Assembly (NCBI GenBank): GCA_030765845.1
Contig: JAVCDJ010000203.1
Coordinates: 83,947 to 147,946, forward strand
DNA from: Candidatus Stygibacter australis
Lineage (GTDB): Bacteria > Cloacimonadota > Cloacimonadia > Cloacimonadales > TCS61
Length of the DNA stretch: 64,000 bases
Reading direction: 5' to 3'
The position numbers and the translations under genes were made by a program. Shown in pieces: positions 4,523 through 63,163 of this stretch. The notes beneath the pieces were generated by a model, which searched no databases, was not told the DNA's origin, and was given only the letters and a program-made list of their open reading frames with translations. Each line of letters starts with the position of its first letter. Position 1 is the stretch's first letter.

Positions 4523-4607
4523 GATTTAACAAATAAAATTTCATGATATAATGTTATCTCAATAATATTTATGTAATTACGAGCTTCTGATTATTTTTTT
4601 AACTGAA

Positions 4608-24711: not shown

Positions 24712-24764
24712 GAACAACTTAGCATAATCTAACAAAAAAATGTCAATATGTGCTTTGTTGTTCC
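24712..24764 (+). repeat. Family-H hairpin element, copy H2
   Basis: GAACAACTTAGCAT-AATCTAACAAAAAAATGTCAATA-TGTGCTTTGTTGTTCC, followed by TCCTGATAATTTTCC. Confidence 0.85.
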
Positions 24765-24875
24765 TCCTGATAATTTTCCGGAACTGGCACCTCTCGACTT
24801 CTACTAATACTACACTTTGTTAAAATAGATGATAAATTAAAGTGTTGGAATAAAGAAGATAGATTTACACTTTCT

Positions 24876-25240: not shown

Positions 25241-25305
25241 TCTAATATTTTAGTTGACAGATATAAGCATTTTCTTTAAAAGAAATCCAAATATAGGAGG
25301 TGCAT

Positions 25306-25924: not shown

Positions 25925-26003
25925 ATAGGTTTTATACGTCCTATATGACCTATAATATAACCACTTATCTAATCAAACTCACCTATAGATCAGTGAGTGA
26001 GAA

Positions 26004-26055
26004 GAACAACAAAACACGCCCCATAAATAAATGTCAGTATGTGCTTCGTTGTTCC
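26004..26055 (+). repeat. Family-H hairpin element, copy H3 (most diverged)
   Basis: GAACAACAAAACAC-GCCCCATAAATAAATGTCAGTAT-GTGCTTCGTTGTTCC, followed by TCCTGATAATTTCC. Confidence 0.75.
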
Positions 26056-26272
26056 TCCTGATAATTTCCAAGAGGCTGAGAAATATGTGATCAGAGATAA
26101 TATGTTGACAAATAGAAGGTTAAGAGAAAAGGTGAATCATTGATGTAGAGATCAGTGAGAAAGGTGAAATGGAAAAAATCTGCAAAAGAGAAAAACAGAT
26201 TATATTATCTGCAGCAGAAAGCAGAAAAGGTGAGAGAAGAAGTTTAAAAGATGGTAATGAAAGAGAAAAAGC

Positions 26273-39153: not shown

Positions 39154-39237
39154 ATAATTTATAATTAAATACCTCTAAGAATCCCTCTATTGATATCAAT
39201 GATCCACCTCAGACCACCCTGCTTCTGCCATTGAGGA

Positions 39238-39290
39238 GGAACAACAAAGAACTATCTAACATAAAAATGTCACTATGTGCTAAGTTGTTC
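39238..39290 (+). repeat. Family-H hairpin element, copy H4
   Basis: GGAACAACAAAGAAC-TATCTAACATAAAAATGTCACTAT-GTGCTAAGTTGTTC. Confidence 0.85.
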
Positions 39291-39396
39291 TAGTTATATA
39301 CTGGATATATGCCTAAAGAAATGGTGTATAGGGATTTATCTATATTTTGAGGGTTTGGGGGTGGAAAAGCAGGATAAAAACTATAAATTGTAAATA

Positions 39397-48786: not shown

Positions 48787-48807
48787 TCTTGAACCGAAGG
48801 AGACATT

Positions 48808-50622
48808 ATGAAGTTCAAATGGATATATCTCTTATTGCTTATAGTTTTTCTCAATAGTTGCCAGAATGATACTACTACCACTTCAGGAGGATATACTCTC
48901 ACCCTGAATTCGATACCGGATACTTTATTCACACACACGGCTCCTAATTCGGCTGAGGTTACTGCCATGCTGATCAATGATAATTATCCTGTTTCGGGTG
49001 TAGAGATCCAATTTGCTGCCGATACGGGTGAATTAGCCGGTTCAGCAATAACAAATAATAATGGAATTGCTACATCAATTTATCATGCAAATACCGCCCA
49101 GCCCGGAACTGCCACTATAACTGCCAGTTATGATGATATTGAAGCTGCTACTGAGATCACAATTATCAGCAGTGGTGTTACTCTGACCCTCATCTCATCT
49201 GCAGAAACCCTGTTTGTGGGCTCGGGAGAAAATACCTGCCAGATCACGGCAATATATACTGAGAATGATCAACCTGTACCGGATGCTCAAGTTTTCTTTA
49301 CTACTGACCTGGGGGAGATCACTGCTTTTAACGTAACTGATGAAAATGGCATGGCAACTGCTACATATCTGAACAGCAATCTGGATACCGGTATTGTCAA
49401 TATTAGTGCCACCTGCAATGGACTTGAAGCATTTACTAATATTATGCTGGATTTGGACCCTGCTTTGCAAATGAACATCTCAACAACAGCAGATACCCTG
49501 TTTCTGGGTTCTGGTATTGATACTTGCCAGATCAGAGCTGAATTAACCCGAAATGGCGCCCCTGTAGCCGGAGCTCCAGTCAGTTTCACTTCTGATATTG
49601 GAAGTATCACTGCCAGTGATATTACAGATAATGATGGTATTGCAGAAGCCACTTTCACTTATGATGGTTCTGAGCCAGCAATAGCTACTTGTCAGGTTGC
49701 TTTTTCCTCCCTGCAGGATGAAATTGTCATCAATATTGTGGAGGATGCCATAAATGACTTGGAAGTCTGGGCTGATCCCAATATGATATTTCTGGATTCT
49801 GGTAATTATGACACAGATGTGTTTGCCAGCTTAACCGATCATGATGGAAATCCCATTTCTGATGAAGTCATCAATTTTGAAGTGAGTTCAGGATTTATAC
49901 CCTCGAGCTCGATCACTAATTCCCAGGGATTAGCAGAAGTAGTATATGTCTTTTCTGGTGATGAGGAAGAAATTATCCAGATCACAGCAACACATCAGAA
50001 TCAATCAGCGATCGGTTATATTTATGCCCTGCAGCCTGAGATAGTACTTACTGCCTGGGCTGAGCCTGACACTATTTATCAGGGCACAAGTGCCAATTAT
50101 GCCGATGTCTATGCTCAATTGACCACGGAGTTCGGATCACCGATTACGGGTGTCCAGATCAATTTTTCTACTACTGTAGGCTCTATCCTGGGGTATGGTT
50201 CCACAAATAGCCAGGGAATAGCGAACACCACTTTCTGGTACAATGAAAGACCTGATATCATTGCTGATATCACTGCTACTTATCAGGGACTTGCTGCCAC
50301 CACCAGTGTGACCATACTGGAAGATCAGCTCGAAATTGTTGCTCTGGAAGCTGATCCGCTCATCATCTATGCTGATAACGACCCGGAAACATATTCCACT
50401 GTCCGTGCCAGAGTTTATGATAGTGCCGGTTTGCCTGTTGAAGATGCAATTGTCACTTTTGAAACCAATCTCGGCTATATGACTTTAGATACCGCCCAGA
50501 CCAATTTCTCCGGCTGGGCAACCAATATGCTGCATGATAACGGTGTTTCTGGTGTGGCAACTATATATATAACCTGTGATAATGACTATTCACAAATAGA
50601 TGTTCAGATTATTGATGAATAA
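48808..50622 (+). CDS. Big-domain lipoprotein, paralog 2
   Basis: 604 aa. Lipobox FLNSC. About six Ig-like repeats. The C-terminal 190 aa are ~60-65% identical to paralog 1. Confidence 0.7.
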   Translation: MKFKWIYLLLLIVFLNSCQNDTTTTSGGYTLTLNSIPDTLFTHTAPNSAEVTAMLINDNYPVSGVEIQFAADTGELAGSAITNNNGIATSIYHANTAQPGTATITASYDDIEAATEITIISSGVTLTLISSAETLFVGSGENTCQITAIYTENDQPVPDAQVFFTTDLGEITAFNVTDENGMATATYLNSNLDTGIVNISATCNGLEAFTNIMLDLDPALQMNISTTADTLFLGSGIDTCQIRAELTRNGAPVAGAPVSFTSDIGSITASDITDNDGIAEATFTYDGSEPAIATCQVAFSSLQDEIVINIVEDAINDLEVWADPNMIFLDSGNYDTDVFASLTDHDGNPISDEVINFEVSSGFIPSSSITNSQGLAEVVYVFSGDEEEIIQITATHQNQSAIGYIYALQPEIVLTAWAEPDTIYQGTSANYADVYAQLTTEFGSPITGVQINFSTTVGSILGYGSTNSQGIANTTFWYNERPDIIADITATYQGLAATTSVTILEDQLEIVALEADPLIIYADNDPETYSTVRARVYDSAGLPVEDAIVTFETNLGYMTLDTAQTNFSGWATNMLHDNGVSGVATIYITCDNDYSQIDVQIIDE

Positions 50623-50640
50623 AAAATAGTAAGGAATAAA

Positions 50641-52095
50641 ATGAAATACACCCAAATAATCATATTAGCCTGTATTTTACTCATAATCACTTCATGTGAT
50701 TCACGAAATGTGGAACCGGAATCTTTTCAATTGACACTTCATGCTAACCCTGAGACCATCTTCAGAGATAATAATGAAACCTATTCCATTATTTCTGCTA
50801 TCGTTAAAGACGATAATGATTTCGGTATCTCAGGTACTGAAGTGAAATTCCGTACTAATATCGGCAGCATTATCGGTGCAGTCTCAACTGACAGCTCAGG
50901 TGTGGCAGAATCAACCTTCTGGGACAGCAATGACCTGGGAGTTGCTACCATCGAAGCTTTTGTAGGGGATGTTTCTGCTTCTACTCAGGTTACTATTCAG
51001 GAGCTGGTTAATAATGAAGTTGCTTCCATCGCCTTTGATAATGCCCCGCTGAATATTCAGGTGCAGGGTACTGGTGGTCAGGAAAGCGGTGTTCTGAGAG
51101 CTTATCTCCATGACCTTAATGGCAATATTATAGATACTAATCAGGGAGTATTTTTTCAGCTGCTAAGCCATCCTCTTGGTGCTTTGATCAATGGGCAAAC
51201 AGAATCGGACACTGTATCTGCTCAGAACGGCTCAGCTGCTGTGATCATCTCCAGCGGTACTGCTTCTGGTATTGTGAGTGTGAGAGCTTCTACATACACT
51301 GAAGAAGGTATACTGATCAGTGCCGAAAAATCAAATATTATTATCCATTCCGGACCGCCTAATTCAGTTGATTTCTCCATCAGCGGTGATGACAGTGGTG
51401 AAGATATGGGTGGCGGACTCTGGGTCGTGGAAGTGAGTGCACTGCTTACTGATAGTTATGGAAATCCCGTAGATTCAGGCACAGCAGTATTTTTCTCTCT
51501 GCCGGAAGATCCTGATTTTGCCTCAGTTCAAGCCAATTCATATGTGGGTAATGAAAATGCCAATGGTGATACTCTGCAAGGAACCGCCTACACAAACCTC
51601 ATCTACGAAGGCACAATGACCAATAACTTTGTGATGGTGCAGGTAGATACCGGTGAATTCAGCGACAATGACTCCCTGCGTTTACCTCTCCAGGCTCCGC
51701 ATCTGGATATCACTGTTACTCCCGCTCATATTGACTGGGATGAAAGCAGTCCCAATAATCCTCCTGATGATCAGTCAACAACTGTACGGGTAATAGTGAA
51801 GGATGGTCAAAATAATCCTATTAATAACCAGAGAGTGATATTCTCATCTTCTTTGGGGGACCCAGTGGATATGGGTACTGATGAAGATAATGATGATTTT
51901 ACTGAGATAACAGGACAGCAGGGTGAAGCTGGACTCGTGCTCAAAGATATTGAGTTTCACCGTTATGAATGCCCCGCTCCAGGTCCCGGAGGGCCCGGAT
52001 TCGCAACCTGCACGATAACAGCCACGCTTCTGGGAAATGTAGTCTCAGGCTCATCAGTTATCTCCCTTTTCCGCTACGAAGATTTCAATCCCTGA
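50641..52095 (+). CDS. Big-domain lipoprotein, paralog 3 (more diverged)
   Basis: 484 aa. Lipobox IITSC. Ig-like repeats. Confidence 0.65.
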   Translation: MKYTQIIILACILLIITSCDSRNVEPESFQLTLHANPETIFRDNNETYSIISAIVKDDNDFGISGTEVKFRTNIGSIIGAVSTDSSGVAESTFWDSNDLGVATIEAFVGDVSASTQVTIQELVNNEVASIAFDNAPLNIQVQGTGGQESGVLRAYLHDLNGNIIDTNQGVFFQLLSHPLGALINGQTESDTVSAQNGSAAVIISSGTASGIVSVRASTYTEEGILISAEKSNIIIHSGPPNSVDFSISGDDSGEDMGGGLWVVEVSALLTDSYGNPVDSGTAVFFSLPEDPDFASVQANSYVGNENANGDTLQGTAYTNLIYEGTMTNNFVMVQVDTGEFSDNDSLRLPLQAPHLDITVTPAHIDWDESSPNNPPDDQSTTVRVIVKDGQNNPINNQRVIFSSSLGDPVDMGTDEDNDDFTEITGQQGEAGLVLKDIEFHRYECPAPGPGGPGFATCTITATLLGNVVSGSSVISLFRYEDFNP

Positions 52096-52266
52096 TCCCT
52101 CAAAAGTTAGATTTACCAGAACAACTGTTTCCTAATTAAATAGTTGAATTTTATCCAAAAATACCCACTAACCCGAAATTTCCCTGATTCCTCCCATTTC
52201 CCCCGTATTTTAACCCTAAAATATCCCTATTCCCCCTATCTACAAACAATTTACAGGATTTAAGGA

Positions 52267-52320
52267 GGAACAACTTAGCACTATCTAACAAAAAAATGTC
52301 ACTATGTGCTTTGTTGTTCC
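52267..52320 (+). repeat. Family-H hairpin element, copy H5
   Basis: GGAACAACTTAGCAC-TATCTAACAAAAAAATGTCACTAT-GTGCTTTGTTGTTCC. Confidence 0.85.
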
Positions 52321-52333
52321 ACTTCCAAGTGGC

Positions 52334-52384
52334 TTCATAATTAGTATAAAATATACGTTAATCATCGGAAAAAGTGAAAAATGG
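52334..52384 (+). repeat. 51-nt module TTCATAATTAGTATAAAA.A.ACGTTAA.CATC.GAAAAAGT.AAA, copy 1
   Basis: About 85% identical to 60406-60455 in the same orientation. The two copies bracket the 52-60 kb island. Confidence 0.8.
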
Positions 52385-52415
52385 AATTTCAGGGGAATTA
52401 CTCAGATTGAGAATT

Positions 52416-52448
52416 ATGGACAATATGGACGGAATGGACATGATGGAT
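52416..52448 (+). repeat. 9-bp-phased TGGAC array, copy D2
   Basis: ATGGACaatATGGACggaATGGACatgATGGAT, 21 nt upstream of TTGACA (52470-52475). Confidence 0.85.
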
Positions 52449-52469
52449 GAAAAGTGAAAAATAAAAACA

Positions 52470-52499
52470 TTGACAGGCGGCTTAAGTTTTAGCTATTTG
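52470..52499 (+). promoter_or_regulatory. Promoter candidate for the AbiL-like operon
   Basis: TTGACA (52470-52475), 18-nt spacer, then TATTTG (52494-52499), 40 nt before the ATG. Confidence 0.35.
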
Positions 52500-52538
52500 C
52501 AATTATTATGCAGATAGTTCAAAAAGAAGGTAATAAAA

Positions 52539-53915
52539 ATGATAATTAGTTTTTCTGTCAGCAATTTTCTTTCCATAAAGGAAGAGCAGGTTTTAAGTTT
52601 TGAGGCAAGCAGTGATGAGAGTTATAATGAATACTTTATCCGGGAAATCGGCAAATACAGGCTTCTTAAGATGGGAATCATTTATGGGGCAAATGCCTCT
52701 GGCAAGACCAATATTTTAAAAGCACTCGATGTTCTAAGACAGCTTGTGACAAGATCACGTGATGCAGATAAGGATATATATTACACTCCGTTTTTATTTG
52801 ATGATGAATATAAGACGGGAAACTGCAAAATGAAGCTTGAGTTTCTGGTAGGGGATGAGGGTAAATATGTAAAACACATTTATGAACTGGAATTTAATGC
52901 CAAAGAAATAGTAAATGAGTCTTTGAAATATTATCCAGGCCAGCAGCCGGCTATGATTTATAATAGGGTAAAAAATACAAATCTGGAGAGGGGGTACACG
53001 TTAAAATTTAGTAATGGTTCAAAACCTAAATCAGAGGAGCAGAATATTCTGGAAAGCAGTACTTTGATCAATAATACAATATTATCAGCTTTTAATAAAG
53101 TGAATCCCATAATTCCCAAAACGAAACGTGTGAGAAAATGGTTTGATTACTACATGACACGGTTGTTATCACAGGAAAATAAAGCTGATGAGAAAACAGC
53201 TGATGTTTTTTTTAAGAAATCCATACAGAGACAGGGAATTTTAAATGAATTTATAAAAAAAGCTGACTATAATGTTTCTAAATTTATTATTTCAGAAGGA
53301 AATTGGAAATTTACAGAAGATAGAAAAGATTTTGCATTAAAATTTGGTGAATTAATTTATTCCTTAGATGAGTCAAACTCTGCGATGTCAAATTGGAAAA
53401 ACCAAATTGATAAAATAACTCAATTACCAATTACAAAAAAAGAACTTAGTCATGTTTACAAGGTTAAGGGAGAATTAAAGGAGGGTAATTTACCATATCT
53501 GCTGGAGTCAAATGGGACTAAACGGAGTTTTGAATTGGCAGCGCCACTTATAGAGAATTTAATGAAGGGTAAAATAATGATATTAGATGAGATAGAATCT
53601 TCACTTCATTTTGATTTAGTGAAATATATCATATTAGTATTTCTGGCAAATTCTGAGAATTCGCAGATGCTTTTTACTACCCATAATCTTCTTTTGCTGG
53701 ACTGGGATATCTTACGTCATGATGTTATCTGGTTTACAGAGAAGAAAGAAGATGGCTCAACAGACTTATATTCTCTGGCAGACTTTAAGGAATTGAATCG
53801 TAGTAATATATTGAAAAGATACTTAAGTGGTCAGTTTGGAGCAAAACCAGACATCTATGATTATAAGCTGAATCTGCAGGATCTGAAAGAGGATAGCAGT
53901 GGCAAGAAAAATTAA
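52539..53915 (+). CDS. AAA_21/ABC-type ATPase (AbiLi/RloA-like)
   Basis: 458 aa. Walker A GANASGKTN, Walker B IMILDEIESSLH, H-loop TTHN. Overlaps the downstream RloB-like gene by 17 nt. Confidence 0.7.
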   Translation: MIISFSVSNFLSIKEEQVLSFEASSDESYNEYFIREIGKYRLLKMGIIYGANASGKTNILKALDVLRQLVTRSRDADKDIYYTPFLFDDEYKTGNCKMKLEFLVGDEGKYVKHIYELEFNAKEIVNESLKYYPGQQPAMIYNRVKNTNLERGYTLKFSNGSKPKSEEQNILESSTLINNTILSAFNKVNPIIPKTKRVRKWFDYYMTRLLSQENKADEKTADVFFKKSIQRQGILNEFIKKADYNVSKFIISEGNWKFTEDRKDFALKFGELIYSLDESNSAMSNWKNQIDKITQLPITKKELSHVYKVKGELKEGNLPYLLESNGTKRSFELAAPLIENLMKGKIMILDEIESSLHFDLVKYIILVFLANSENSQMLFTTHNLLLLDWDILRHDVIWFTEKKEDGSTDLYSLADFKELNRSNILKRYLSGQFGAKPDIYDYKLNLQDLKEDSSGKKN

Positions 53916-54513
53916 AAAGCGGAAATTAGAGAAAAAAATTTTGATCCTGGGCGAAGGAACCAGTGAGCAATCGTATTTTATAGAAATGAAAGAATCAGAG
54001 CATCTCAGTTATACTATTAAACCTGAATTGCCTAAGAACTCCAATTATGATACTATTTTCAAAAAGGCGGAAAACGAAGCAGAATATTACTTAAAGGTAT
54101 TTTGTCTAATAGACTTAGATTATATCATCAGGGATGGATTGTATTCAGAATATAATAATTATAAGCAGAAATTACAAAGAGAAAATAAGAATGTACAGAT
54201 ATTTGAGAATTATCCCTGCCTGGAAACCTGGTTTGCCTTTCACTATGCGTATTTCAGCAGAGAATTTGCATCCTGTAAAGACCTGATAAATGAATTTTTA
54301 AATATCAAAAATCGCTTAATGGATTATAAAAAGGGAGCCAGTTCCAGGAAATATTATAATCAACTAAAACCGTATCAAAATGAAGCAATTATAAGAGCTG
54401 AAAGAACTTTTCAAAATAGATCGAATGGGATTGCTGAAAATCTCTACCGAGTGAACGATTGCCAGGTGGCATTTACCGAAATATATCTGATTATCAGGGA
54501 ATTATTGAGCTAA
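53899..54513 (+). CDS. RloB-like (TOPRIM-related) protein (AbiLii-like)
   Basis: 204 aa. GTG start 5 nt after AAGAGGA. N-terminal ILILGEGTSEQSYF and internal CLIDLDY match the RloB family pattern as I know it. Confidence 0.65.
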   Translation: MARKIKKRKLEKKILILGEGTSEQSYFIEMKESEHLSYTIKPELPKNSNYDTIFKKAENEAEYYLKVFCLIDLDYIIRDGLYSEYNNYKQKLQRENKNVQIFENYPCLETWFAFHYAYFSREFASCKDLINEFLNIKNRLMDYKKGASSRKYYNQLKPYQNEAIIRAERTFQNRSNGIAENLYRVNDCQVAFTEIYLIIRELLS

Positions 54514-54572
54514 TAGGATAATTACATAATAGATAAAAAACCGATTATTATTTTTGTAATTTTTCGCGCTAT

Positions 54573-54595
54573 TTAGTGGATTTAGTGGTTGATAA
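54573..54595 (+). repeat. TTAGTG(N3)TTAGTGGTT(G/A)AT(A/G)A motif, copy 1
   Basis: TTAGTGGATTTAGTGGTTGATAA, compared with 60611-60633 TTAGTGACATTAGTGGTTAATGA. In both places TTTGTTTTGTGGACGGA and ATACTTGACT follow downstream. Confidence 0.7.
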
Positions 54596-55105
54596 ACTTT
54601 TTTTTAGAACCACGAAAAACGCGAAAGGACGGGAATAATAATCAGTTATTTTTATAAGATGATTTGTCTTTACATTTTTTTTGTTTTGTGGACGGAGTGC
54701 CAATAATAATTACCTGTATTAAAAAAAATACTTGACTGGGAATATTTTTTATATTCGTTTGTCTCTGGTTAGACAAAGAGTTGGCTTATTGGGAATGTAA
54801 TATTTTGAATCAATGTTGTTTTAAAGATTGAAATTACATGATGTGGAGTCTATACTATATGAAATAACATAATTGTAATTTACGTGATTCAGAGAATATG
54901 AGAGTCATCTAGGATATAATAAAGATAAATCCAAAGTACTAATTGAGATTTATGGATGTTGTTTCCCCGTTATATAGCTAGATATTTCAAAGATTTGAGG
55001 AGGGTTTTATTGATACTTTCACAAATCTTTGAAAGTAGCTTTATTAGCATTAATTAAGTACTAAAAAAATAGGTGAAACAAAAAAGAAAGAAAAGGAGTT
55101 GAACG

Positions 55106-55813
55106 ATGGAAAACACTGATTTAAAAATCGGATTAGCAATGTTAGAGGATGTTGAAAATGACTTAGAAGCAACATATGGTAATGTTCTTGCCTGGGGACC
55201 TATTACAAGTATCGAAGGCTTTAATGGAAGAGGAGCAACACAAAGGCTGACAAAAGATTTGAAAGTTGCTAAAAAGAAAATTGGCGATTTCCAACAAGGT
55301 CAAGCAAAAGCAGCCTTTTTAATGGGAAGAATTTGTGCTGTTGGTGTGGGTAGAGATTTTAGCCATCGGATACACCTTAAATGTATGAAATATTATGAAG
55401 AAGCAATTGAATTAGGTTATGATGAAGCGATAGTGAAGTATTGTATGGCTAAACATAAAGATGCCTGGGATAAAAAGAAGGCATCTATTGAACTTTACGA
55501 GAGAGTTGTAGAATTAATGGGGATTGATAATCCCAATGGAATGGATTCAGCAAAGCAAATAGAAAAACTTAAATCAAAAAAAGGTTGTTTCATTGCGACA
55601 GCAGTATATGGTTCCTATTCTGCACCTGAAGTCATAGTGTTAAGAAGATTTAGAGATGACATTTTATTACCTTCGCAAATTGGAAGTATTTTTGTAAAAT
55701 TCTATTATCTTACTTCACCGCCTATTGCGAGGTTTTTAGAGAAACATAAACTTCTGCAGAAATTTGTCCGAGATTTTATAATTCAGCCTATTGTGAATTT
55801 GTGTAAAAAATAA
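55106..55813 (+). CDS. Hypothetical protein: Sel1/TPR-like N-terminal part and a C-terminal GCFIATAxYGS-type conserved domain
   Basis: 235 aa. SD AAGGAG. No signal peptide. C-terminus KKGCFIATAVYGSYSAPEVIVLRRFRDDILL...FVKFYYLTSPPIARFL is a recurrent domain of unknown function that I recognise by motif only. Confidence 0.6.
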   Translation: MENTDLKIGLAMLEDVENDLEATYGNVLAWGPITSIEGFNGRGATQRLTKDLKVAKKKIGDFQQGQAKAAFLMGRICAVGVGRDFSHRIHLKCMKYYEEAIELGYDEAIVKYCMAKHKDAWDKKKASIELYERVVELMGIDNPNGMDSAKQIEKLKSKKGCFIATAVYGSYSAPEVIVLRRFRDDILLPSQIGSIFVKFYYLTSPPIARFLEKHKLLQKFVRDFIIQPIVNLCKK

Positions 55814-55838
55814 TAATTAATCTATTTATGGAGGGAAA

Positions 55839-56696
55839 ATGGATAAAATTCAAGAAGTGATCGATGAGATTATAGAAGAACCATATACGATGGCATTTTG
55901 CTATAATTGTGGAACAGAAAATCAAGATGCAGAAGAAAATGATATATGTAAAAACTGTGGGGAAAAAATATCACTATCAATTAATGAATTAAAAGGAAAA
56001 ATCAAGCGATATTGCCGAGAATGCGGAGAGCAAATTAATGAATCAGAGGATTATTGTTTAGCTTGTGGTATGGATATAGAATTGTCTACTGAAGATTTGC
56101 TCTGCATGGTATTGTTAGAACTTATTGAAGAAGAAGACCGTAAAGATGCTCTTGAATTCGGTAAGAATTTACTTGAATATCTAGAAGGTCATTATCAAAG
56201 GTTTGTGGCTTCAGGTTTTATGAAATCAATATACGGTGAATTATTTGTAGAGAAGTTTGGAAATTCATCTCCTGATCTTACTTTTGCACAAATACCTGAT
56301 AGTGAGTTAAATGATGATATTTTCGCAAGCATACTAGAATATTCTCAAATTACAATCGAAGAATTTAACCAACTTCCATCAAAAAGAAAGCAGATTCTTG
56401 AAAAATTTCCATTAAGAAGGAAAATGATTCAAGATATGAAGACAATTTGTTATGAAGGACCAATTGAGTTGGCTAAACGTGGTTTAACTAATAAATCAAA
56501 CAATCCCCAAGCTACAAAAAAAACTTATAAATATTCATCACATGGTTCATTTCAGGGTTCAAAAGGTATACTTATACTTTGGGGAAGTTTAACATTAATT
56601 TCTTTAATTTGCTTAATTGCTGGTTTGGGGGGGCTCTTCTCTATGATATTGTTTGGTGCAATAACTTACTATTATTGGAAATCGAAAACAATATAA
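55839..56696 (+). CDS. Double zinc-ribbon protein with a C-terminal two-helix membrane anchor
   Basis: 285 aa. SD GGAGGG. CYNCG...CKNCG and CRECG...CLACG. C-terminus GILILWGSLTLISLICLIAGLGGLFSMILFGAITYYYW. Confidence 0.6.
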   Translation: MDKIQEVIDEIIEEPYTMAFCYNCGTENQDAEENDICKNCGEKISLSINELKGKIKRYCRECGEQINESEDYCLACGMDIELSTEDLLCMVLLELIEEEDRKDALEFGKNLLEYLEGHYQRFVASGFMKSIYGELFVEKFGNSSPDLTFAQIPDSELNDDIFASILEYSQITIEEFNQLPSKRKQILEKFPLRRKMIQDMKTICYEGPIELAKRGLTNKSNNPQATKKTYKYSSHGSFQGSKGILILWGSLTLISLICLIAGLGGLFSMILFGAITYYYWKSKTI

Positions 56697-56752
56697 TTAT
56701 TTAGAGGAGTTTAAATAACATTTATCAAATCAGGTGATAGATGTAAAATTGT

Positions 56753-56781
56753 AAGAATTGCAGAATATTTCTGCAATTCTT
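56753..56781 (+). terminator. Perfect 13-bp-stem hairpin after the zinc-ribbon gene
   Basis: AAGAATTGCAGAA-tat-TTCTGCAATTCTT. No strong U-tract. Confidence 0.45.
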
Positions 56782-56906
56782 CGCAAAATAACTTACACAG
56801 TGTATTTGAGCAAGGATTTAATCCTGACAGGTCAATTCCATCAAAATGTGTGGGCAAGGTAAGTTAAGTGTATTAAGTGAAAAATTATTAACAAGGAGAA
56901 ATTATT

Positions 56907-57077
56907 TTGAGCAAACCAAAATCCAAAACAACAAATTATAGTGGCATCTCAGATGCACTTTCCGGAACCAAAACCTATAAGACGAAAATTTCCGATGGGA
57001 AAAAAAGTGTATCTGCATTAGGATCGCCAAAGACTTCACAAAAGCGAGCTTCAGATAAGTGGAATAAAAAGAAGTAG
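56907..57077 (+). CDS. Small basic Lys/Ser/Thr-rich protein (56 aa), not in the ORF track
   Basis: TTG start 7 nt after AAGGAGA. My translation: MSKPKSKTTNYSGISDALSGTKTYKTKISDGKKSVSALGSPKTSQKRASDKWNKKK. Confidence 0.35.
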   Translation: MSKPKSKTTNYSGISDALSGTKTYKTKISDGKKSVSALGSPKTSQKRASDKWNKKK

Positions 57078-57253
57078 AACAAAATTACTTATGAAAACGA
57101 GTTAAAATAAGTTTAATCGAATAATAGACTAAATTAACTGATTTATTTTCTGCATGAAGAATTTGAATATTGATCATAATATTCTCATAGTATAATCCTG
57201 ATTATCGGGAATTAAGATTTGGGATTAATCAGTTTGGCATGTAAAAATGAAAC

Positions 57254-57811
57254 ATGGAGGGTATCTTGAAAAGAAAGATTTATTGTTTATTGGTGCTTGT
57301 GTTATTAATCTTAGGTTGCACAGAAGATACTACAACCGAAGTAACAGTTCAAGATAATAATGCAGATCAAGTATATAATATATCACCACAATCCGGATTG
57401 ATTGGAAACGTGGATCTGTATTTAATACCGGAAACTATACAAGGATCTGCAATAGTTATTATTAATGGACCAGGCAGTGCAATAGGATATGATATCCGTG
57501 ATGCTGAAGACCAGGCATTTATATATTTTGCGGATAGTTATATTGCAGCTGGAGGTTCATCGTTGCAATCAGGGACAATTTTACCAACAAACAGGTGGGT
57601 AAAAATAAGATTAGTCCTTTATGAATCCGGGCTTGCTGGTTGGATTGTCACGTTTTTACAGTATCTTGGATTAGATTTCTTCGATAGTCTGGAAGATTAT
57701 ATGATTGCTGAAGTATATGAGATAGATGTAATGCTCGAAGATAATAGAGGAGGGCAGAAAATCATAAAAGGTGTTTGGCAGGAAATAACAGATCAAATAA
57801 AAAACAAATAG
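57254..57811 (+). CDS. Lipoprotein of unknown function
   Basis: 185 aa. Lipobox LLILGC. An in-frame TTG at 57266 (4 nt after GGAGGG) is an alternative start. Confidence 0.6.
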   Translation: MEGILKRKIYCLLVLVLLILGCTEDTTTEVTVQDNNADQVYNISPQSGLIGNVDLYLIPETIQGSAIVIINGPGSAIGYDIRDAEDQAFIYFADSYIAAGGSSLQSGTILPTNRWVKIRLVLYESGLAGWIVTFLQYLGLDFFDSLEDYMIAEVYEIDVMLEDNRGGQKIIKGVWQEITDQIKNK

Positions 57812-57820
57812 GAGGGAATG

Positions 57821-57997
57821 ATGTCAGCTACAGTTATTGGGAGAGTAAAATCCGGAAGTTATAAGTCTTATGAAGTGAAATGGGATTCAGCAAGCAAGGA
57901 TACTTATGTGTCTTATGCTGGCTGGACAAGCGTAGGAAAAGCTTATTCTGCCGGTGAAGCTATGAATAAAGCTGAAGCTTTTTTGTATAATAAATAA
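57821..57997 (+). CDS. 58-aa hypothetical protein, not in the ORF track
   Basis: ATG 4 nt after GGAGGG, which overlaps the upstream stop. MSATVIGRVKSGSYKSYEVKWDSASKDTYVSYAGWTSVGKAYSAGEAMNKAEAFLYNK. Confidence 0.45.
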   Translation: MSATVIGRVKSGSYKSYEVKWDSASKDTYVSYAGWTSVGKAYSAGEAMNKAEAFLYNK

Positions 57998-58007
57998 GGA
58001 GAATAAA

Positions 58008-58106
58008 ATGCTATATGTATTGATAATAATAAATATTATTGTTGTAAATTATGTGACTATTTTCAAGAAGATATCTCCACAAAAAGAGCAGAAAATGATT
58101 TCGTAG
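58008..58106 (+). CDS. 32-aa single-TM micro-protein, not in the ORF track
   Basis: ATG 4 nt after AAGGAGA. MLYVLIIINIIVVNYVTIFKKISPQKEQKMIS. Confidence 0.35.
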   Translation: MLYVLIIINIIVVNYVTIFKKISPQKEQKMIS

Positions 58107-58196
58107 AATAAGCAGACAAGGCACGAATTGACCTTTCTCTGGAGAGGATTTAGCGAATAATCATAATAGTGAATTAAGTCAAATAGGATTGTTTAA

Positions 58197-58529
58197 ATGA
58201 TAAATGTTTATAAACCGTTTGGTGGTCATCTGGGTTTCAGGAAAGATAATGATGTCTTCATATCCGGTGGATTATTTGGTCAGGGGCGCAAAATAGGGGA
58301 GATAAAAGGCAATGATATTTACTCAATAGGTGTATTATTTGGTAAAACAAAACTTGGTTATGTTTCAGGAAATTACGTCTATACAACCTTCGGGAGCCTG
58401 TTTGGTGCAAGTAAGGTTGGGGTTATAGTTGGAAAAGATATATATGATACAAATAGAAATCACTTAGCTCATATGGATGCTGCTGACCCGCAATTAGGGG
58501 CAGCAACTATTTTGTTACTGATAAAATAA
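58197..58529 (+). CDS. 110-aa protein with three internal ~20-aa Gly-rich repeats
   Basis: LFGQGRKIGEIKGNDIYS / LFGKTKLGYVSGNYVYT / LFGASKVGVIVGKDIYD. Weak SD. Confidence 0.5.
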   Translation: MINVYKPFGGHLGFRKDNDVFISGGLFGQGRKIGEIKGNDIYSIGVLFGKTKLGYVSGNYVYTTFGSLFGASKVGVIVGKDIYDTNRNHLAHMDAADPQLGAATILLLIK

Positions 58530-58547
58530 CCAATTTAGGGAGATTGA

Positions 58548-60371
58548 ATGGAAAATACCGATAAGATTAAATCTTTGTATGAAAAAGGAAGCAAGCTGGT
58601 TGAGGAAGATCAAACAGAGGAAGCTATTGCGATTTTTAATGAAATAATATCTTTGGATCCAGGATTTTACAAAGCATATTTTCAAAGAGCACATTTGTAT
58701 ATGTCTTCGGGTGATATTGATAATGCTATCAGTGATTTTAGTGCTGGGCTAGAAATTAAACAAGATGCTTATGCCTATTTGTTAAGAGCATCTGCATACG
58801 ATACCAAAGAAATGTTTGAGCAGTCATCAAGAGATTATAGCAAGGTAATTAAACTTGAATCTGATCCTGGCATCCTGTATTTTGCCCATTTGAATCGCGG
58901 GTCAGCATTCAATTATTTAGAGAGATATTCGGAAGCTGTTGAAGATTTCACAAAAGCTATGGAAATAAATCCGGAAGATCCCAAAGCATTTAGAGGAAGA
59001 GCCATTGCTTACTTTCATCTTAACCAGATTGATAAATCAATAGATGACTGGTCAACCGTGATAAAGCTAACGCCTGATGACGCAGAACCTTATAAAAAGA
59101 GAGCTTCCTTATATTTTCAGATTGATAGATCTATAGATGCAATTAAGGACTCTACTAAATCAATTGAGCTTGATCATAATGATATTGAGTCCTATATAAT
59201 CCGGGGTTCCTCCTATCTTAAAGAAAGTGATGTCATAAAAGCAAAAACAGATCTGCAATTCGCTAAAAATAAGGGAAATGAAGCAGCAGCTCAACTTTTA
59301 ATAGAGATCGATATGATGTTTGATGTAGATACTTTGCTCGAAAAGGGTAATAAGGCTCTGCTGGAAAAAGATTATGAAAGTGCCTTCAATCATCTATCCA
59401 AGGCACAGGCGGTCTCTAATGCGCCCAATGTTCTAACGTCATTAGCAACTGCCTTAAAGCACCTTGGCAGATTTGAAGATGCCATATTCTGTTTAGAAAA
59501 AGCTTTAAACGAAACTTCAGATCCGGAAACACTGGGTTCGGTCACTTATAATTTAGGGAATATTTTCCGGGAAACAGACAGATTTGAGGATGCCATCAAG
59601 TGGTATATCAAATCAATTAAATTCCGCCCTGATCATATAGGCGTACACTATAATCTTGGAATGTCTTATGAAGCAATCGAAGAACATGACCTCGCTATAA
59701 AAGAATTGGAGACAGTTTTACAGATAGATCCCAAACTGAATGACGTAAGAAGCCGGATTGAACTCATCAAAGAAACCGGGAATGATATCCGAAGTGAAAA
59801 AATACCGGATAGTGCGGGTGATTCACATTTTCTGCCGGAAAATAAAGAGCTTAGAGAAAATATAGCTCGTGCTACAGAAATGTGTGCCAGGGACGATGAA
59901 TTCGAAGAGATAATTTTCCATTTAGAAAAGATATTGAAAATTGATCCTGAGTGCAGTGATCCTGAGTTTTTACTTGTTGCTTGTATTGTATATAGCGGAA
60001 TTGCCTTGAAGTTGAAGGATTTTTCGCCAGAAGCTAAAAATGCCGTAAAATTTGGCAGAAAATTGCTGGCTATTGAAGAAAAGAAATCCAATCCATCTGA
60101 TGATATATTATTTTCAGCTTATCGAGCTCTATTATTGGGTTATTTTAGACTTAATGAATATGATCAGGCAAAGGAATTTGGCACAAAAGCATTAAAGATT
60201 ATACCGGATTCTGAAGTCATAATAAAATTGATGGAGTGGCTGCAGGCAAATAGGACCAGTGAAGATACTATCCCCTCAATTCAAACTCCTGCCAAGCCCA
60301 AAGCAGGATGTCTCGGGACAATATTTTTGATGTTGTTTTATTGCTCATGTTTTTTATATTTGTTATTATAA
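58548..60371 (+). CDS. TPR-repeat protein with a C-terminal Cys + hydrophobic tail anchor
   Basis: 607 aa with more than 10 TPR units. C-terminus PAKPKAGCLGTIFLMLFYCSCFLYLLL. The N-terminus MENTDKIK resembles that of the 235-aa protein (MENTDLKI). Confidence 0.7.
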   Translation: MENTDKIKSLYEKGSKLVEEDQTEEAIAIFNEIISLDPGFYKAYFQRAHLYMSSGDIDNAISDFSAGLEIKQDAYAYLLRASAYDTKEMFEQSSRDYSKVIKLESDPGILYFAHLNRGSAFNYLERYSEAVEDFTKAMEINPEDPKAFRGRAIAYFHLNQIDKSIDDWSTVIKLTPDDAEPYKKRASLYFQIDRSIDAIKDSTKSIELDHNDIESYIIRGSSYLKESDVIKAKTDLQFAKNKGNEAAAQLLIEIDMMFDVDTLLEKGNKALLEKDYESAFNHLSKAQAVSNAPNVLTSLATALKHLGRFEDAIFCLEKALNETSDPETLGSVTYNLGNIFRETDRFEDAIKWYIKSIKFRPDHIGVHYNLGMSYEAIEEHDLAIKELETVLQIDPKLNDVRSRIELIKETGNDIRSEKIPDSAGDSHFLPENKELRENIARATEMCARDDEFEEIIFHLEKILKIDPECSDPEFLLVACIVYSGIALKLKDFSPEAKNAVKFGRKLLAIEEKKSNPSDDILFSAYRALLLGYFRLNEYDQAKEFGTKALKIIPDSEVIIKLMEWLQANRTSEDTIPSIQTPAKPKAGCLGTIFLMLFYCSCFLYLLL

Positions 60372-60405
60372 GAAATCACTGTCATCCAGTTAAGCATTAA
60401 GTAGG

Positions 60406-60455
60406 TTCATAATTAGTATAAAACTTACGTTAAGCATCAGAAAAAGTAAAAGAAG
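60406..60455 (+). repeat. 51-nt module TTCATAATTAGTATAAAA..., copy 2
   Basis: TTCATAATTAGTATAAAACTTACGTTAAGCATCAGAAAAAGTAAAAGAAG, compared with 52334-52384. Confidence 0.8.
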
Positions 60456-60466
60456 AACTTGCACAG

Positions 60467-60510
60467 CTAACGGTACTCCGGAAGTGGGGCGAGAACTACG
60501 TGCAGTTATC
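60467..60510 (+). repeat. Partial family-B repeat (inverted relative to B3)
   Basis: CTAACGGTACTCCGGAAGTGGGGCGAGAACTACGTGCAGTTATC shares GGTA.T.C.GGAAGTGGGGCG with the family-B core. Confidence 0.5.
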
Positions 60511-60561
60511 AGCAGCAATTCATATTATTACCTTCTTCTTTTTCAGGGATTTGTTGGTAGC

Positions 60562-60618
60562 GGTCGTTATCTGCGCCCCACCTGGAAATACCCGGCGGTG
60601 CACATATAACTTAGTGAC
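60562..60618 (-). repeat. Family-B intergenic repeat, copy B3
   Basis: Reverse complement is GTCACTAAGTTATATGTGCACCGCCGGGTATTTCCAGGTGGGGCGCAGATAACGACC. Its CTTAGTGAC end points toward the 60782 gene. Confidence 0.8.
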
Positions 60619-60646
60619 ATTAGTGGTTAATGATCTTCTTTGTTTT

Positions 60647-60679
60647 GTGGACGGAATGGACAGGGTGGACGGTGTAGGA
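60647..60679 (+). repeat. 9-bp-phased TGGAC array, copy D3
   Basis: GTGGACggaATGGACaggGTGGACggtGTAGGA, 32 nt upstream of TTGACT (60712-60717). Confidence 0.8.
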
Positions 60680-60781
60680 AGACTTAAAAAAGCTGATGGA
60701 TAAGATTATACTTGACTAATTATCACACATAAATCTAATTTATAAAGAGTATTAAAAATAAACGATTAAACGAAGGGAAAA

Positions 60782-63163
60782 ATGTTATTACGATGTGTGC
60801 TGACTGTTATTTTTTTAAATGCAATAAATGTACTATTTTGCCAGGTAGTGATAAATGAGCTGTATTATGATCATCCAGGTGGTGATGATGGTGAGGAATG
60901 GGTGGAATTATATAATACCAGCAGTGAAGCGATCAATCTTGAGTATTGGAGAATCGAAAAGGGAGGGAGTGAGTTTGAAACTGTTTTGTTTCTTCCGTTT
61001 ATCATAATCGAAGGAAATGGATATTTACTTATTGGTGAATCTAATGTGCCGGGTGCAGATATTTACGCTGAACTGGTTTTTCAAAACGGAGGTAGCACTA
61101 CGGATGGGGTAAGGTTGGTATCTGGTTTCGGTCCCTGGACAGATACAGTTCTTTATGATTCACCAAATTCTAATGAGCTTATCGATGATACGGGGTTTGC
61201 CGGGGTCAGTTTTGCTCCAGATGTGACAGCAGGACATTCGCTGGGTAGAATCCCCAATGGATATGACAGCAATCAGGGAAGTGACTGGCAGGAATGTGAA
61301 AATCTTAGTCCCGGGACAGCTAATATAATCAGCATTGATCTGGAGATCAGCGAGGCGGAGTTAACGTTAATTGATGGCAATATTTGCTTATACACAGTGG
61401 TCCATAATCTATCCACAGGGGGTGTGGATAACTCTGTAGGCAGCCTTGATATTTACTTTAATAATCAACCATTTGAGAGTTTGCCGATAAACGAAATATC
61501 AGGAAATGAGAGTCTGGAATACAGTTATGAATTAGGCGAATCAGTAGCTGGATACTCTCAGACAGAATTAATCATTAACTCCATATATGACAATAACTTG
61601 GAAAACAATATATCAGGATGCTCGATCCTTATTGAAATGAGTCCCTTGTGGTATAATGAATTGATGATCAAGCCTTTAGGAAATGACTGTGAATGGGTGG
61701 AGATAATTGTTGATAACTATGTGGATAACTTTGTGGATAACTTGTATATTCGTGATGCTGTGGGCAATACAGGGAGTTTTGCTGCTGCTGATCTGGGGGA
61801 AGGATTTCTGGTGATATGTGATGAGCCGGAAAGTTTGATAGCTAATTATGGACTTACTGCAAGTCAGGTGATAGAGAGTGAACAATTGCCTGGAATGAAT
61901 AATGAAGGAGATATACTATATCTGGAAGATGAGTGGGGAACGCTGCTGGATATGGTGGAATATGGTGCCCTAGCAGGAAATGAAGAGGGAATAAGCTGGG
62001 AAAGGATCAATCCTCTATCAGATGATAGCGACTGGGGGCATTGCATTAGTGAATCTGGTCAAACTGCGGGATATGCTAACAGTCTGATGCAGGGAATGAT
62101 CGATCTGGCGCTGGATTTGAAGGGGGTTAATCTGCAGGAAGAATATCTGGAGCATCATCTGCTGGTGACCAGTGCGGGAATTGAACAAGTGGATGATGCT
62201 GAGCTGGTGATAAGCTGGCAGGTGTTTTCAGGCGGAAATTATGGAAGCTATTCAGAGAATATAATAATTGATTCTGACAGTTTGGAAATTGTAATAAACA
62301 CAGAACTGCCGGGCAGTGGGTTTTATGAATACACCTATCAGCTGGAGGTAGAGGGCGATACAGATCTGAGCAATAATGTAGTAGTGAATTATTTTAATCA
62401 GGGTAGTCTGGGCTGGGTGATCAATGAGATCATGTATCACCCGAAAGCCGGGGAGCCGGAATGGCTGGAACTTAAGAGGAATGTGGGATATGGCATGGCA
62501 GATAATTTATGGGTAATAGTGGATGATGACAGCTGTGAGATCGCTGCTGCGGGAGAATATGTAATTGTAACCGGATCAGAATCTGATGTGGAGGAGATGT
62601 GGGGATTATATGGAGAGGATCTGGAAATATCTGAGGGATTGAAGAGGCTAACTGATAGTGGCTGTGAGATAGGTATAAAAGATATGTATGGCAATATAAT
62701 AGAATTATTCAGCTATGATCCAGACTGGAACCAGTCAATTCAGGGAGTATCCATTGAACGGGTAAATCCGCTTTTACCGGCGAGTGAAGACAACTGGAGC
62801 CGCAGTGTGTCAGAATGCACTCCCGGAGAAGCAAACAGCATTTATACAGAATTACCAGTGACAGGATCGAAATTGACTATCACTCCAGAGGTATTTTGTC
62901 CGAGGGATGGTGAACATACAGTGATCAGTTATCAAAACAGCGAGAATCTTAATCTGGTGAGAATAGCTATCTATGATCTGAAAGGGCGAAAGATATGTAA
63001 ATTAGTTGATCATGAATACCAGGGAGCCAATGGGTATTACATCTGGGACGGAAGAAATGAAGCAGGTAAAATCGTAAAAATGGGAATTTACATAATCCTT
63101 TTTGAGACTTCAGCAGCAGGTAATATAAAAGTAGAGAAAAAGACGGTAGTAGTAAAAAGATAG
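60782..63163 (+). CDS. Secreted protein with three lamin-tail domains (LTD) and a FlgD-Ig/T9SS-type C-terminal domain
   Basis: 793 aa. LTD signatures VVINELYYDHPGGDDGEEWVELYNTS, LWYNELMIKPLGNDCEWVEII and WVINEIMYHPKAGEPEWLELKRN. C-terminus VRIAIYDLKGRKICKL...YIWDGRNEAGKIVKMGIYIILFE. Confidence 0.7.
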   Translation: MLLRCVLTVIFLNAINVLFCQVVINELYYDHPGGDDGEEWVELYNTSSEAINLEYWRIEKGGSEFETVLFLPFIIIEGNGYLLIGESNVPGADIYAELVFQNGGSTTDGVRLVSGFGPWTDTVLYDSPNSNELIDDTGFAGVSFAPDVTAGHSLGRIPNGYDSNQGSDWQECENLSPGTANIISIDLEISEAELTLIDGNICLYTVVHNLSTGGVDNSVGSLDIYFNNQPFESLPINEISGNESLEYSYELGESVAGYSQTELIINSIYDNNLENNISGCSILIEMSPLWYNELMIKPLGNDCEWVEIIVDNYVDNFVDNLYIRDAVGNTGSFAAADLGEGFLVICDEPESLIANYGLTASQVIESEQLPGMNNEGDILYLEDEWGTLLDMVEYGALAGNEEGISWERINPLSDDSDWGHCISESGQTAGYANSLMQGMIDLALDLKGVNLQEEYLEHHLLVTSAGIEQVDDAELVISWQVFSGGNYGSYSENIIIDSDSLEIVINTELPGSGFYEYTYQLEVEGDTDLSNNVVVNYFNQGSLGWVINEIMYHPKAGEPEWLELKRNVGYGMADNLWVIVDDDSCEIAAAGEYVIVTGSESDVEEMWGLYGEDLEISEGLKRLTDSGCEIGIKDMYGNIIELFSYDPDWNQSIQGVSIERVNPLLPASEDNWSRSVSECTPGEANSIYTELPVTGSKLTITPEVFCPRDGEHTVISYQNSENLNLVRIAIYDLKGRKICKLVDHEYQGANGYYIWDGRNEAGKIVKMGIYIILFETSAAGNIKVEKKTVVVKR

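Follow-up and report, generated by a model that had tools for sequence, protein, structure and literature searches.

The 64,000-nucleotide (nt) stretch of DNA analyzed here (the window) comes from Candidatus Stygibacter australis, a member of the Cloacimonadota from Ace Lake, Antarctica (PMC8542988), and it contains an 8.7-kb island at positions 52096-60781, between an operon for Big-domain lipoproteins and a gene for a surface protein with a lamin tail domain (LTD). The island carries an abortive-infection operon, AbiL (block i), followed by a unit of seven genes (block ii), and these represent two nested insertions, both of them inside an array of (A/G)TGGAC units phased by 9 bp. We consider it likely that the island is a strain-variable accessory region located in a recombination hotspot of one conserved intergenic region and shaped by homologous exchange. 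Neither defense genes nor CRISPR is mentioned in the paper that describes the species (PMC8542988).

Synteny was compared at loci found through LTD and AbiLi orthologues (AbiLi is the ATPase of the AbiL operon), and at least five states of the site were found. The Big operon abuts the LTD gene across a spacer of 465 bp in locus L140, whose LTD protein is 85% identical in amino acids (aa), and across 254 bp in L141 (62%), while a different single gene of 272 aa occupies the site in L142 (61%). AbiL alone is present in L144/L267, which belong to a sister lineage also found in Ace Lake, and in L019, L005, L006 and L008, which carry a second allele of S. australis (allele B). In L143/L266, AbiL is followed by a duplicated 75-nt fragment of the 3′ end of its second gene, AbiLii, and by another cassette. 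Lastly, AbiL and block ii occur together in the window and in L001-L003, L010, L011 and L014. The flanks are syntenic in L140-L144, L266 and L267, with the Big operon on the left and LTD, ComM and SpoIIE genes on the right, the LTD gene being followed by a ComM-type Mg-chelatase-like gene; a corresponding three-gene Big set precedes the LTD gene in L140-L143. An earlier note on this DNA, made from its letters only, had proposed a cassette-like accretion site and had suggested asking whether relatives lack the island. Some do, and the proposal is supported by the empty and alternative sites, by the absence of block ii from allele B and from L144/L267, and by the location of the junctions within a repeated module.

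The duplication in L143/L266 has an anatomy of its own. The last 75 nt of AbiLii (7375-7449) are repeated at 7754-7828 with 98.7% identity, approximately 300 bp downstream and before the different cassette, and the sequence GTAGGTCAATCATCCCGGA is found both within the split left array and after the AbiLii duplicate (5290-5310 and 7841-7860). These duplications are more evidence of repeated recombination at the hotspot.

The composition of the island is foreign to the genome. Its GC (guanine plus cytosine) content is 0.335, versus 0.395 for the rest of the window, and lies below those of all 174 equal-sized windows taken elsewhere (lowest, 0.357; mean, 0.391; standard deviation, 0.013). Similarly, its tetranucleotide distance to the rest is 0.263, about twice those of other segments (0.08 to 0.15). 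Smaller low-GC patches are present elsewhere in the window, at 3-4, 12-18 and 42-44 kb. The AT richness that the earlier note had seen by eye is therefore real, and so is the gene content that it had described as defense-like or orphan, namely, an AAA_21 ATPase and an RloB protein followed by genes with generic domains or none. It had also remarked on the lack of an integrase, a transposase or a tRNA flank. Indeed, the Pfam family lists of the neighborhood (window 40.6-64 kb; at least 10 kb on each side) include no integrase or transposase, and no tRNA is found near the island, the sole tRNA of the window (tRNA-Leu, Rfam) being at 26.3 kb. Searches for phage or plasmid similarity of the region returned nothing meaningful.

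The empty site of L140 reveals what the intergenic region looks like when uninterrupted. Its spacer is one contiguous piece consisting of a palindromic element (hp1), a 65-nt element (module A), a five-unit array with the units ATGGACAAT, ATGGACGGA, ATGGACATA, TTGGACGGA and GTGGGAGAA in this order, and a box, ATACTTGACTAAT, directly before the LTD gene. Orthologues of module A, which has no stable fold, occupy the same position in L140, L143, L267 and L142. Hp1 has a folding energy of -22.1 kcal/mol (z = -5.7 versus shuffles) and is kept in the Big-LTD spacers of L140, L142 and L143. The box next to the LTD gene is found with zero to four mismatches in L019, L140, L141, L142 and L144, and this conservation suggests that the box at 60708 is probably the LTD promoter.

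According to the earlier note, the island is bracketed by copies of a 51-nt module, has a third, partial copy inside, and is built of cassettes that are each headed by this promoter-type module. The repeats themselves are real and lie no more than a few bases from the positions that it gave. The bracketing copies are part of a 65-nt repeat with 82% identity (52327-52391 versus 60399-60463), and a 33-nt degenerate pattern of the module matches only these two sites in the 64-kb window and none in 100 shuffles. In the internal partial copy, TTAGTGnnnTTAGTGGTT, TTGTTTTGTGGACGGA and ATACTTGACT occur at 54573, 54681 and 54728, in the same order as at 60611, 60640 and 60708. However, the idea of a portable module at the head of each cassette does not hold. 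The Big-LTD intergenic region is contiguous in the empty site of L140, and the modules are fragments of this ancestral spacer, which the insertions broke up and of which they duplicated parts. They are not a mobile promoter cassette; moreover, the copy of the TTAGTG...TGGACGGA motif is located at the 3′ ends of the inserted blocks. The modules are not generic promoter sequences distributed over the genome either, as 64 kb contain only two copies of module A, three arrays and two double TTAGTG motifs. A scan with a sigma-70 consensus, which may not be that of the Cloacimonadota, yielded 41 sites in the region versus 39.7 in shuffled sequences. Since such sites are no commoner than expected, the “promoter-type” label is unproven.

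The alignment with L140 places the outer junctions of the island in the array. The 14-mer TGGACGGAATGGAC is invariant and is present once in the empty site and twice around the island; L140 is collinear with the window through this 14-mer at the left junction and from it onward at the right junction, and the left sequence departs from L140 from about 52445. The junctions of block ii are marked by the 16-mer TTGTTTTGTGGACGGA, which is found without mismatch at 54681-54696 and 60640-60655 (0.03 matches expected by chance) and which is single in L143 and L144 but doubled in the window. In L019, L143, L144 and L267, a single homologue of the 3′ flank of AbiL is found, joined to a complete array. 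The left junction of block ii directly follows the first array unit (GTGGACGGA, then GTGCC...), and therefore both insertions used the same few array bases. Module A has a second copy, A′, at the 3′ end of block ii. Its identity is 0.82 to the A copy of the window and 0.85 to that of L267, which is marginally the closest, and the orthologues of sister species are 0.80 to 0.86 identical to one another. A′ is thus as diverged from the resident A as orthologues are mutually and looks like an imported orthologue, which suggests an import from a related lineage rather than a recent internal duplication. The coordinates of all of these features are collected in Table 1.

Table 1. Features of the island, its flanks and the third array (window coordinates)
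Feature	Position	Strand	Details
Third TGGAC array, outside the island	18591-18622	-	about 100 nt upstream of the gene for a 497/512-aa protein
Left flank, Big_1/Invasin_D3 lipoprotein operon	47536-52095	+	three genes (416, 604 and 484 aa); Pfam Big_1 (6.3e-17) and Invasin_D3 in the last gene
hp1, 65-nt palindromic element	52262-52326	+	GGAACAAC..AGCAC / loop TATCTAACAAAAAAATGTCAC / GTGCT..GTTGTTCC
Module A, native copy	52327-52391	+	65-nt direct repeat partner of 60399-60463
Left part of the split array	52417-52448	+	(A/G)TGGAC, 9-bp phase; 14-nt core TGGACGGAATGGAC at 52426-52439
5′ end of the AbiL insert	52449-52538	+	TTGACAG box at 52471, 68 nt upstream of the start codon
AbiLi, AAA_21/OLD-type ATPase, 458 aa	52539-53915	+	Walker A GANASGKT; Walker B MILDEIE
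AbiLii, RloB (TOPRIM/OLD-related) effector, 204 aa	53899-54513	+	motifs GEGTSE and DLD (LIDLD)
3′ flank of the AbiL insert (“partial third module”)	54573-54738	+	TTAGTGGATTTAGTGGTT 54573-54590; TTGTTTTGTGGACGGA 54681-54696, the left junction of block ii; ATACTTGACT 54728-54737
Block ii gene 1, 235 aa	55106-55813	+	N-terminal helical domain, CFI-box-CTERM membrane-associated tail; NCBIfam NF041770 (6.6e-26)
Block ii gene 2, 285 aa	55839-56696	+	double zinc ribbon, C-terminal transmembrane segment; Pfam Zn_Ribbon_1 (3.3e-08), DZR
Block ii small genes	56907-58529	+	56 aa (basic); 185/181-aa lipoprotein (lipobox LILGC); 59 aa; 110 aa
Block ii gene 7, 607 aa	58548-60371	+	TPR protein, C-terminal hydrophobic anchor; Pfam TPR_1 (2.8e-60), TPR-S (3.9e-10)
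Module A′, second copy	60399-60463	+	3′ end of block ii
hp2, imperfect hairpin	60561-60628	+	ends in TTAGTGACA, then TTAGTGACATTAGTGGTT
Right junction	60640-60679	+	16-nt repeat TTGTTTTGTGGACGGA 60640-60655; 14-nt core 60648-60661; rest of the ancestral TGGAC array
Conserved box and LTD leader	60708-60781	+	ATACTTGACTAATTATCACAC
Right flank, LTD surface protein, 793 aa	60782-63163	+	Pfam LTD (3.6e-20)

The anatomy of the junctions might also be explained by site-specific cassette capture, in which a recombinase encoded elsewhere would recognize the TGGAC array and/or the TTAGTGnnnTTAGTGGTT...TTTTGTGGACGGA motif, with an integron-like logic and the motif at the 3′ end of each cassette. Both inserted blocks terminate in the same ordered motif, two TTAGTG followed by TTGTTTTGTGGACGGA, both junctions are at the same array unit (GTGGACGGA, then ATGGAC), and the direct repeats of 14 to 16 nt resemble att cores; in addition, the element formed by hp2 and TTAGTGACA is also located 3′ of another low-GC pair of defense-like genes, at 2.85-4.6 kb. 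We nevertheless give little credence to this explanation. There is no tyrosine or serine recombinase and no transposase for at least 10 kb on each side, and the AbiL pair of L145, at another locus, is accompanied by neither arrays nor the TTAGTG motif, which occurs at this locus only in the sequence available. Furthermore, the spacer from TTAGTGGTT to TTGTTTTG ranges from 6 to 86 nt, unlike in a defined recombination site, and the genes that flank arrays in many phyla are not enriched for recombinases. As for hp2 itself, an attC-like nature was considered but seems improbable: its fold is no better than those of shuffled sequences (z = +0.5 and -1.55), and by inspection it has a GTT...AAC arrangement, opposite to that of the core. 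Its first 59 nt (60561-60619) are 93% identical to positions 2851-2909 (-) of the window.

The earlier note was right that 9-bp-phased TGGAC arrays bracket the island (52417-52447 and 60648-60669 in the scan), and 9 bp is the only period found in the window, periods of 6 to 8 and 10 to 13 yielding none. They are not specific brackets of the island, however, because there is a third array on the minus strand at 18591-18622. The 497/512-aa protein encoded next to it has a FlgD_ig-type C-terminal domain and is a probable type IX secretion cargo.

Under a regulatory alternative, a transcription factor would bind the arrays and module A (or these would act as UP-like elements), so that genes for surface proteins would be controlled together, and the duplication around the island would only reflect that every block had acquired this control region. 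Indeed, the start codons of both the LTD gene and the gene for the other probable secreted protein are preceded, at approximately 90 to 110 nt and on the coding strand, by the native arrays. A degenerate 9-bp GGAC array is kept upstream of the LTD gene in a relative with 62% protein identity, and five lineages have retained the box ATACTTGACT. On the other hand, A′ and the right array serve only the LTD gene, which had such elements already, and the left array precedes AbiL only because the island split the array. In other Cloacimonadota loci, arrays are found directly downstream of genes as often as upstream, their neighbors in many phyla are unrelated housekeeping genes, and their distance to a putative -35 box ranges from about 22 to 70 nt. 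A regulatory function would also leave the presence and absence states of the site unexplained, and we regard it as an unlikely explanation of the repeats.

Other readings of the arrays were examined. A small open reading frame (ORF) coding for a Met-Asp-X repeat, in which each ATGGACNNN unit would read MDx, was rejected, as arrays elsewhere carry TAA, TAG or TGA spacers and allele B shifts the frame directly 3′ of the array. For a reading as DnaA boxes, TGTGGATAA was compared with RTGGACNNN; the GC skew switch of the window has no DnaA-box cluster. A permissive search for RNA families in 52100-52540 returned a single match at chance level (RsaE, E = 0.44).

Over 50094-54400, allele B (L019) differs from the window at 4 positions. 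From 54435 and across the module, the divergence is 15 to 20%; 54.6-60.64 kb are missing, and collinearity resumes at 60643 with approximately 99.7% identity, the remaining differences being clustered before 60684. Contigs of metagenome-assembled genomes (MAGs) end at 54434 and start at 60684, as expected if assemblies break because both alleles are present together. The pattern is that of an exchanged tract and argues for allelic replacement through the conserved flanks and not for a fresh deletion. The AbiL insertion is older and shared, and block ii is younger and allele specific.

Conversely, the genus might have had the island from the start, with deletions between direct repeats producing the empty and AbiL-only sites in a region prone to deletions rather than insertions. 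The direct repeats of 14 to 16 nt and the 65-nt A/A′ pair would be good substrates for such deletions, and allele B differs from allele A exactly by the DNA between the two copies of TTGTTTTGTGGACGGA. We find this scenario very improbable: the two most distant relatives (61 to 62% identity) have neither AbiL nor block ii, the composition of the island is foreign to the genome, the genes of block ii have no counterparts in any other lineage recovered, and A′ resembles the orthologue of a sister species. In addition, the junction of allele B is 15 to 20% diverged over 54435-54700, versus flanks that are 99.9% identical, and it is thus not the product of a recent simple deletion.

With no recombinase, transposase or tRNA nearby, short-repeat recombination combined with allelic exchange is the likeliest origin of the island. 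A recognizable mobile element is usual, but not obligatory, in hotspots. In the mechanism that we propose, recombination at short repeated array units would have joined DNA of related lineages, with ordinary homology in the conserved flank anchoring one end and microhomology serving at the other. The first insertion would have brought the AbiL defense operon and the second block ii, the latter in one of two alleles that coexist in the Ace Lake population. The alleles would then have been exchanged or lost among strains by homologous recombination via the near-identical flanks, without a dedicated recombinase. We infer this mechanism from the anatomy of the junctions only.

Several points weigh against this account. 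Of the 465-bp spacer, the array takes up 45 bp, and that both junctions fall within it is suggestive, with a probability of approximately 1% if positions were uniform and independent; however, the target open to insertions is made smaller by selection against disruption of a terminator or promoter. No strain polymorphism was seen at the third array, at 18.6 kb, and arrays are therefore not generally unstable. No donor of block ii was found, metagenome scans having given no second context, and its genes are orphans or have distant relatives only. For allele B, finally, a loss by deletion between direct repeats, rather than a gain, is possible.

Block i is an AbiL abortive-infection system by family membership. 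This family pairs an OLD-type ATPase with a TOPRIM_OLD-related effector (PMC10440598). AbiLi matches the PADLOC profile PDLC02335 over residues 1-450 (3e-80) and Pfam AAA_21 above the cutoff (6.7e-31), and AbiLii matches Pfam RloB (2.9e-21; 77 bits, cutoff 31.5) and the PADLOC AbiLii profile (5.2e-17). The two genes overlap by 17 nt on one strand and are paired likewise in L143, L144 and L145. As read by inspection of the translations, the Walker A and B motifs of AbiLi and the TOPRIM Glu and DxD motifs of AbiLii are intact. By analogy with AbiL of Lactococcus and with further pairs of an OLD-type ATPase and a TOPRIM protein, AbiLi would be expected to restrain AbiLii or to sense for it, and AbiLii might be a RloB/TOPRIM-like nuclease that kills or arrests the infected cell. 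The TTGACAG box upstream is probably AbiL's own promoter, since CATTGACAG upstream of AbiLi is conserved in L143 and also in L145, where a 61% identical AbiL pair is located at an unrelated locus of another Cloacimonadota MAG. Relatives of AbiL with more than 60% identity were found in metagenome contigs of Cloacimonadota type only.

The seven genes of block ii (55106-60371, about 6 kb) are on the same strand and code for membrane-tethered or small proteins. Of the 20,810 relatives of the 235-aa protein, the best 150 include about 25 cluster representatives that are similar over nearly the full length (29 to 51% identity); thousands of relatives share only the tail, the CFI-box-CTERM group being very large. 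In contrast, the 285-aa protein is an orphan, as its sole match among 5.8 billion proteins is itself. The small genes have no matches in PADLOC, PHROG or NCBIfam; the 110-aa product has a weak, 5-fold beta-flower-like match, and the AlphaFold model of the 185-aa lipoprotein is unusable (predicted local distance difference test score of 42). The 607-aa protein has otherwise only generic TPR matches. The suggestion that these genes form an undescribed defense system thus finds no support, with no PADLOC match and no informative PHROG match for any block ii protein, the 285-aa orphan, and the 235-aa protein in the CFI-box-CTERM group; the evidence neither favors nor excludes a defense role. L012, L013 and L015, three independent assemblies from samples that also contain allele B, end within 12 bp of one another at 56446-56458, inside the gene for the 285-aa protein, which suggests a further population breakpoint or a variant inside block ii.

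Altogether, the island is a defense/accessory hotspot between core genes, of an ordinary kind but with unusually well-resolved junctions. Core defense hotspots between conserved genes are reported for Pseudomonas aeruginosa (cDHS1/2; PMC10250203) and Escherichia coli (PMC10121019). The island resembles them in its fixed position between conserved genes, its atypical composition, its five or more alternative contents and the presence of a recognized defense system beside genes of unknown function. In E. coli, the cargo of the hotspots is reported to be overwhelmingly carried by identifiable mobile elements (PMC10121019), whereas the island has no detectable integrase, transposase, tRNA, or phage or plasmid similarity. 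It also differs from core defense hotspots by its junctions in a short 9-bp repeat array with direct repeats of 14 to 16 nt, by its size of 8.7 kb and by its uncultivated Cloacimonadota host. The AbiL pair is similar to AbiL of Lactococcus and to the OLD ATPase-TOPRIM pairs of PARIS (AriAB) and Gabija (GajA) in its overlapping AAA_21 ATPase-RloB operon, its strong matches to the PADLOC AbiLi and AbiLii profiles and its Walker and TOPRIM motifs. Unlike the plasmid-borne pair of Lactococcus, a Firmicute, it is chromosomal, belongs to the Cloacimonadota and is known from its sequence alone.

Two other comparisons are instructive. As in the cassette arrays of integrons and in clusters of attC sites lacking integron-integrases (CALINs), blocks have accreted serially beside a resident promoter region, each with a short motif at its 3′ end. 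However, an IntI integrase is found neither in window 40.6-64 kb nor in the related loci, the motif does not look like an imperfect palindrome of the attC type (cores RYYYAAC/GTTRRRY), AbiL has a promoter-like box, and the blocks, of which there are only two, contain several genes. Like repetitive extragenic palindromes (REP) and bacterial interspersed mosaic elements (BIME), the repeats of the window form short families in intergenic mosaics, with four to five copies of hp1, three TGGAC arrays and two copies of hp2 per 64 kb, and in other phyla the arrays are often paired in inverted orientation. REP/BIME, however, are single imperfect palindromes, whereas in TGGAC arrays 9-bp units follow one another head to tail, each with a conserved hexamer and a free spacer of 3 nt. 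No RAYT-type transposase was seen, although no search was aimed at one.

The island provides a base-pair view of how a defense/accessory island forms at a site without mobile-element machinery, its empty, intermediate and fully occupied states having all been recovered from natural populations of an uncultivated phylum. It extends the picture of hotspots between core genes to the Cloacimonadota and points to short phased arrays as possible recombination substrates. AbiL and the seven envelope-associated orphan genes, which are polymorphic within one lake population, are candidates for phage-host interactions in Ace Lake. The most novel residue of the analysis is the repeat array at the insertion site; if their distribution across phyla reflects a function, the TGGAC arrays would matter more widely than the island.

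A scan for four-unit TGGAC arrays, with one genome per species, identified at least 120 loci (L020-L139). Among the matches listed, approximately 70 of 120 loci contain arrays of a non-coding type, i.e., (A/G)TGGAC units with free 3-nt spacers that include stop codons. Again among the matches listed, these are concentrated in Lentisphaerae, Chlamydiae, Verrucomicrobia, Planctomycetota, Cloacimonadota, Hydrogenedentota, Sumerlaeota, Nitrospirota, Chlorobi, Desulfobacterota and one Clostridia MAG, and they are often paired with an inverted GTCCA array downstream. No Rfam family matched in 16 array-bearing loci. Among 107 ORFs flanking arrays in many phyla, no gene family occurred more than twice, and all were housekeeping genes. 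In viral contigs, only about 3 of 120 array matches were of the non-coding type, the rest being acidic or collagen-like coding repeats, and a literature search for GTGGAC/ATGGAC repeat arrays found no relevant description. It is conceivable, though doubtful, that the (A/G)TGGAC-NNN arrays represent an undescribed class of dispersed intergenic repeats across phyla, which a conserved DNA-binding protein would recognize and which would serve as preferred landing or recombination sites for accessory and defense cassettes without a dedicated integrase.

Two of the arrays in other genomes have particular structures. In Candidatus Sumerlaeia ACE_SUM1, also from Ace Lake (L035, 4860-5390), about five tandem units of approximately 87 bp each consist of an inverted run of GTCCAC and then a run of GTGGAC, so that one hexamer makes up a “super-array.” In the IMG/VR contig 3300034686_000251 (L151), a 32-nt TGGAC array at about 4877-4907, ATGGACTGAATGGACCGGATGGACGGAATGGA, is flanked by two copies of a CRISPR-like repeat, GTATTCCCCACGCACGTGGGGGTGAACCG, and appears to be a CRISPR spacer.

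Within the window, the hp1 family (about 60 nt, loop TATCTAACAAAAAAATGTCAC) has further copies at 24709-24768, 26001-26058 and 39236-39292 and a weaker one near 9760-9811. These 4 to 5 copies per 64 kb are all in one orientation, intergenic and dispersed. The second copy of the hp2 and TTAGTGACA element, at 2851-2909 (-), is directly 3′ of a low-GC unit of two genes at 3074-4579 (-), which code for a 107-aa protein and a 353-aa HTH/ImmA-type peptidase (PADLOC PD-Lambda-2_B, 2.4e-37). A degenerate 9-bp array, TGGAC/TTAAC/TGAAC/TTAAC, is located in between, and no strain polymorphism was seen at the 2.9-kb copy.

A second small variable defense-like islet is located at 42347-44086 (+). It consists of a stand-alone gene for a 579-aa OLD/GajA/AriA-like ATPase (AAA_15/AAA_21; PADLOC NsnB, 1e-21, and AriA, 5e-21) with a GC content of 0.331, and at its position L141 has a different gene, of 374 aa, on the opposite strand.

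GC skew and gene orientation switch at 24579-25299, most genes to its left being on the minus strand and most to its right on the plus strand. This 720-bp spacer has a GC content of about 0.31, adjoins recG and contains a C10 and a G10 run approximately 330 bp apart as well as a copy of hp1. The segment possibly marks an origin of replication or the boundary of a rearrangement; no cluster of DnaA boxes was found at the switch. Six DnaA-box-like 9-mers (TTATCCACA, at most one mismatch) are present within 350 bp inside the LTD gene, at 61388-61748. Three of them are spaced by 12 bp and encode VDN(Y/F) repeats, and the 9-mers are probably a coding coincidence.

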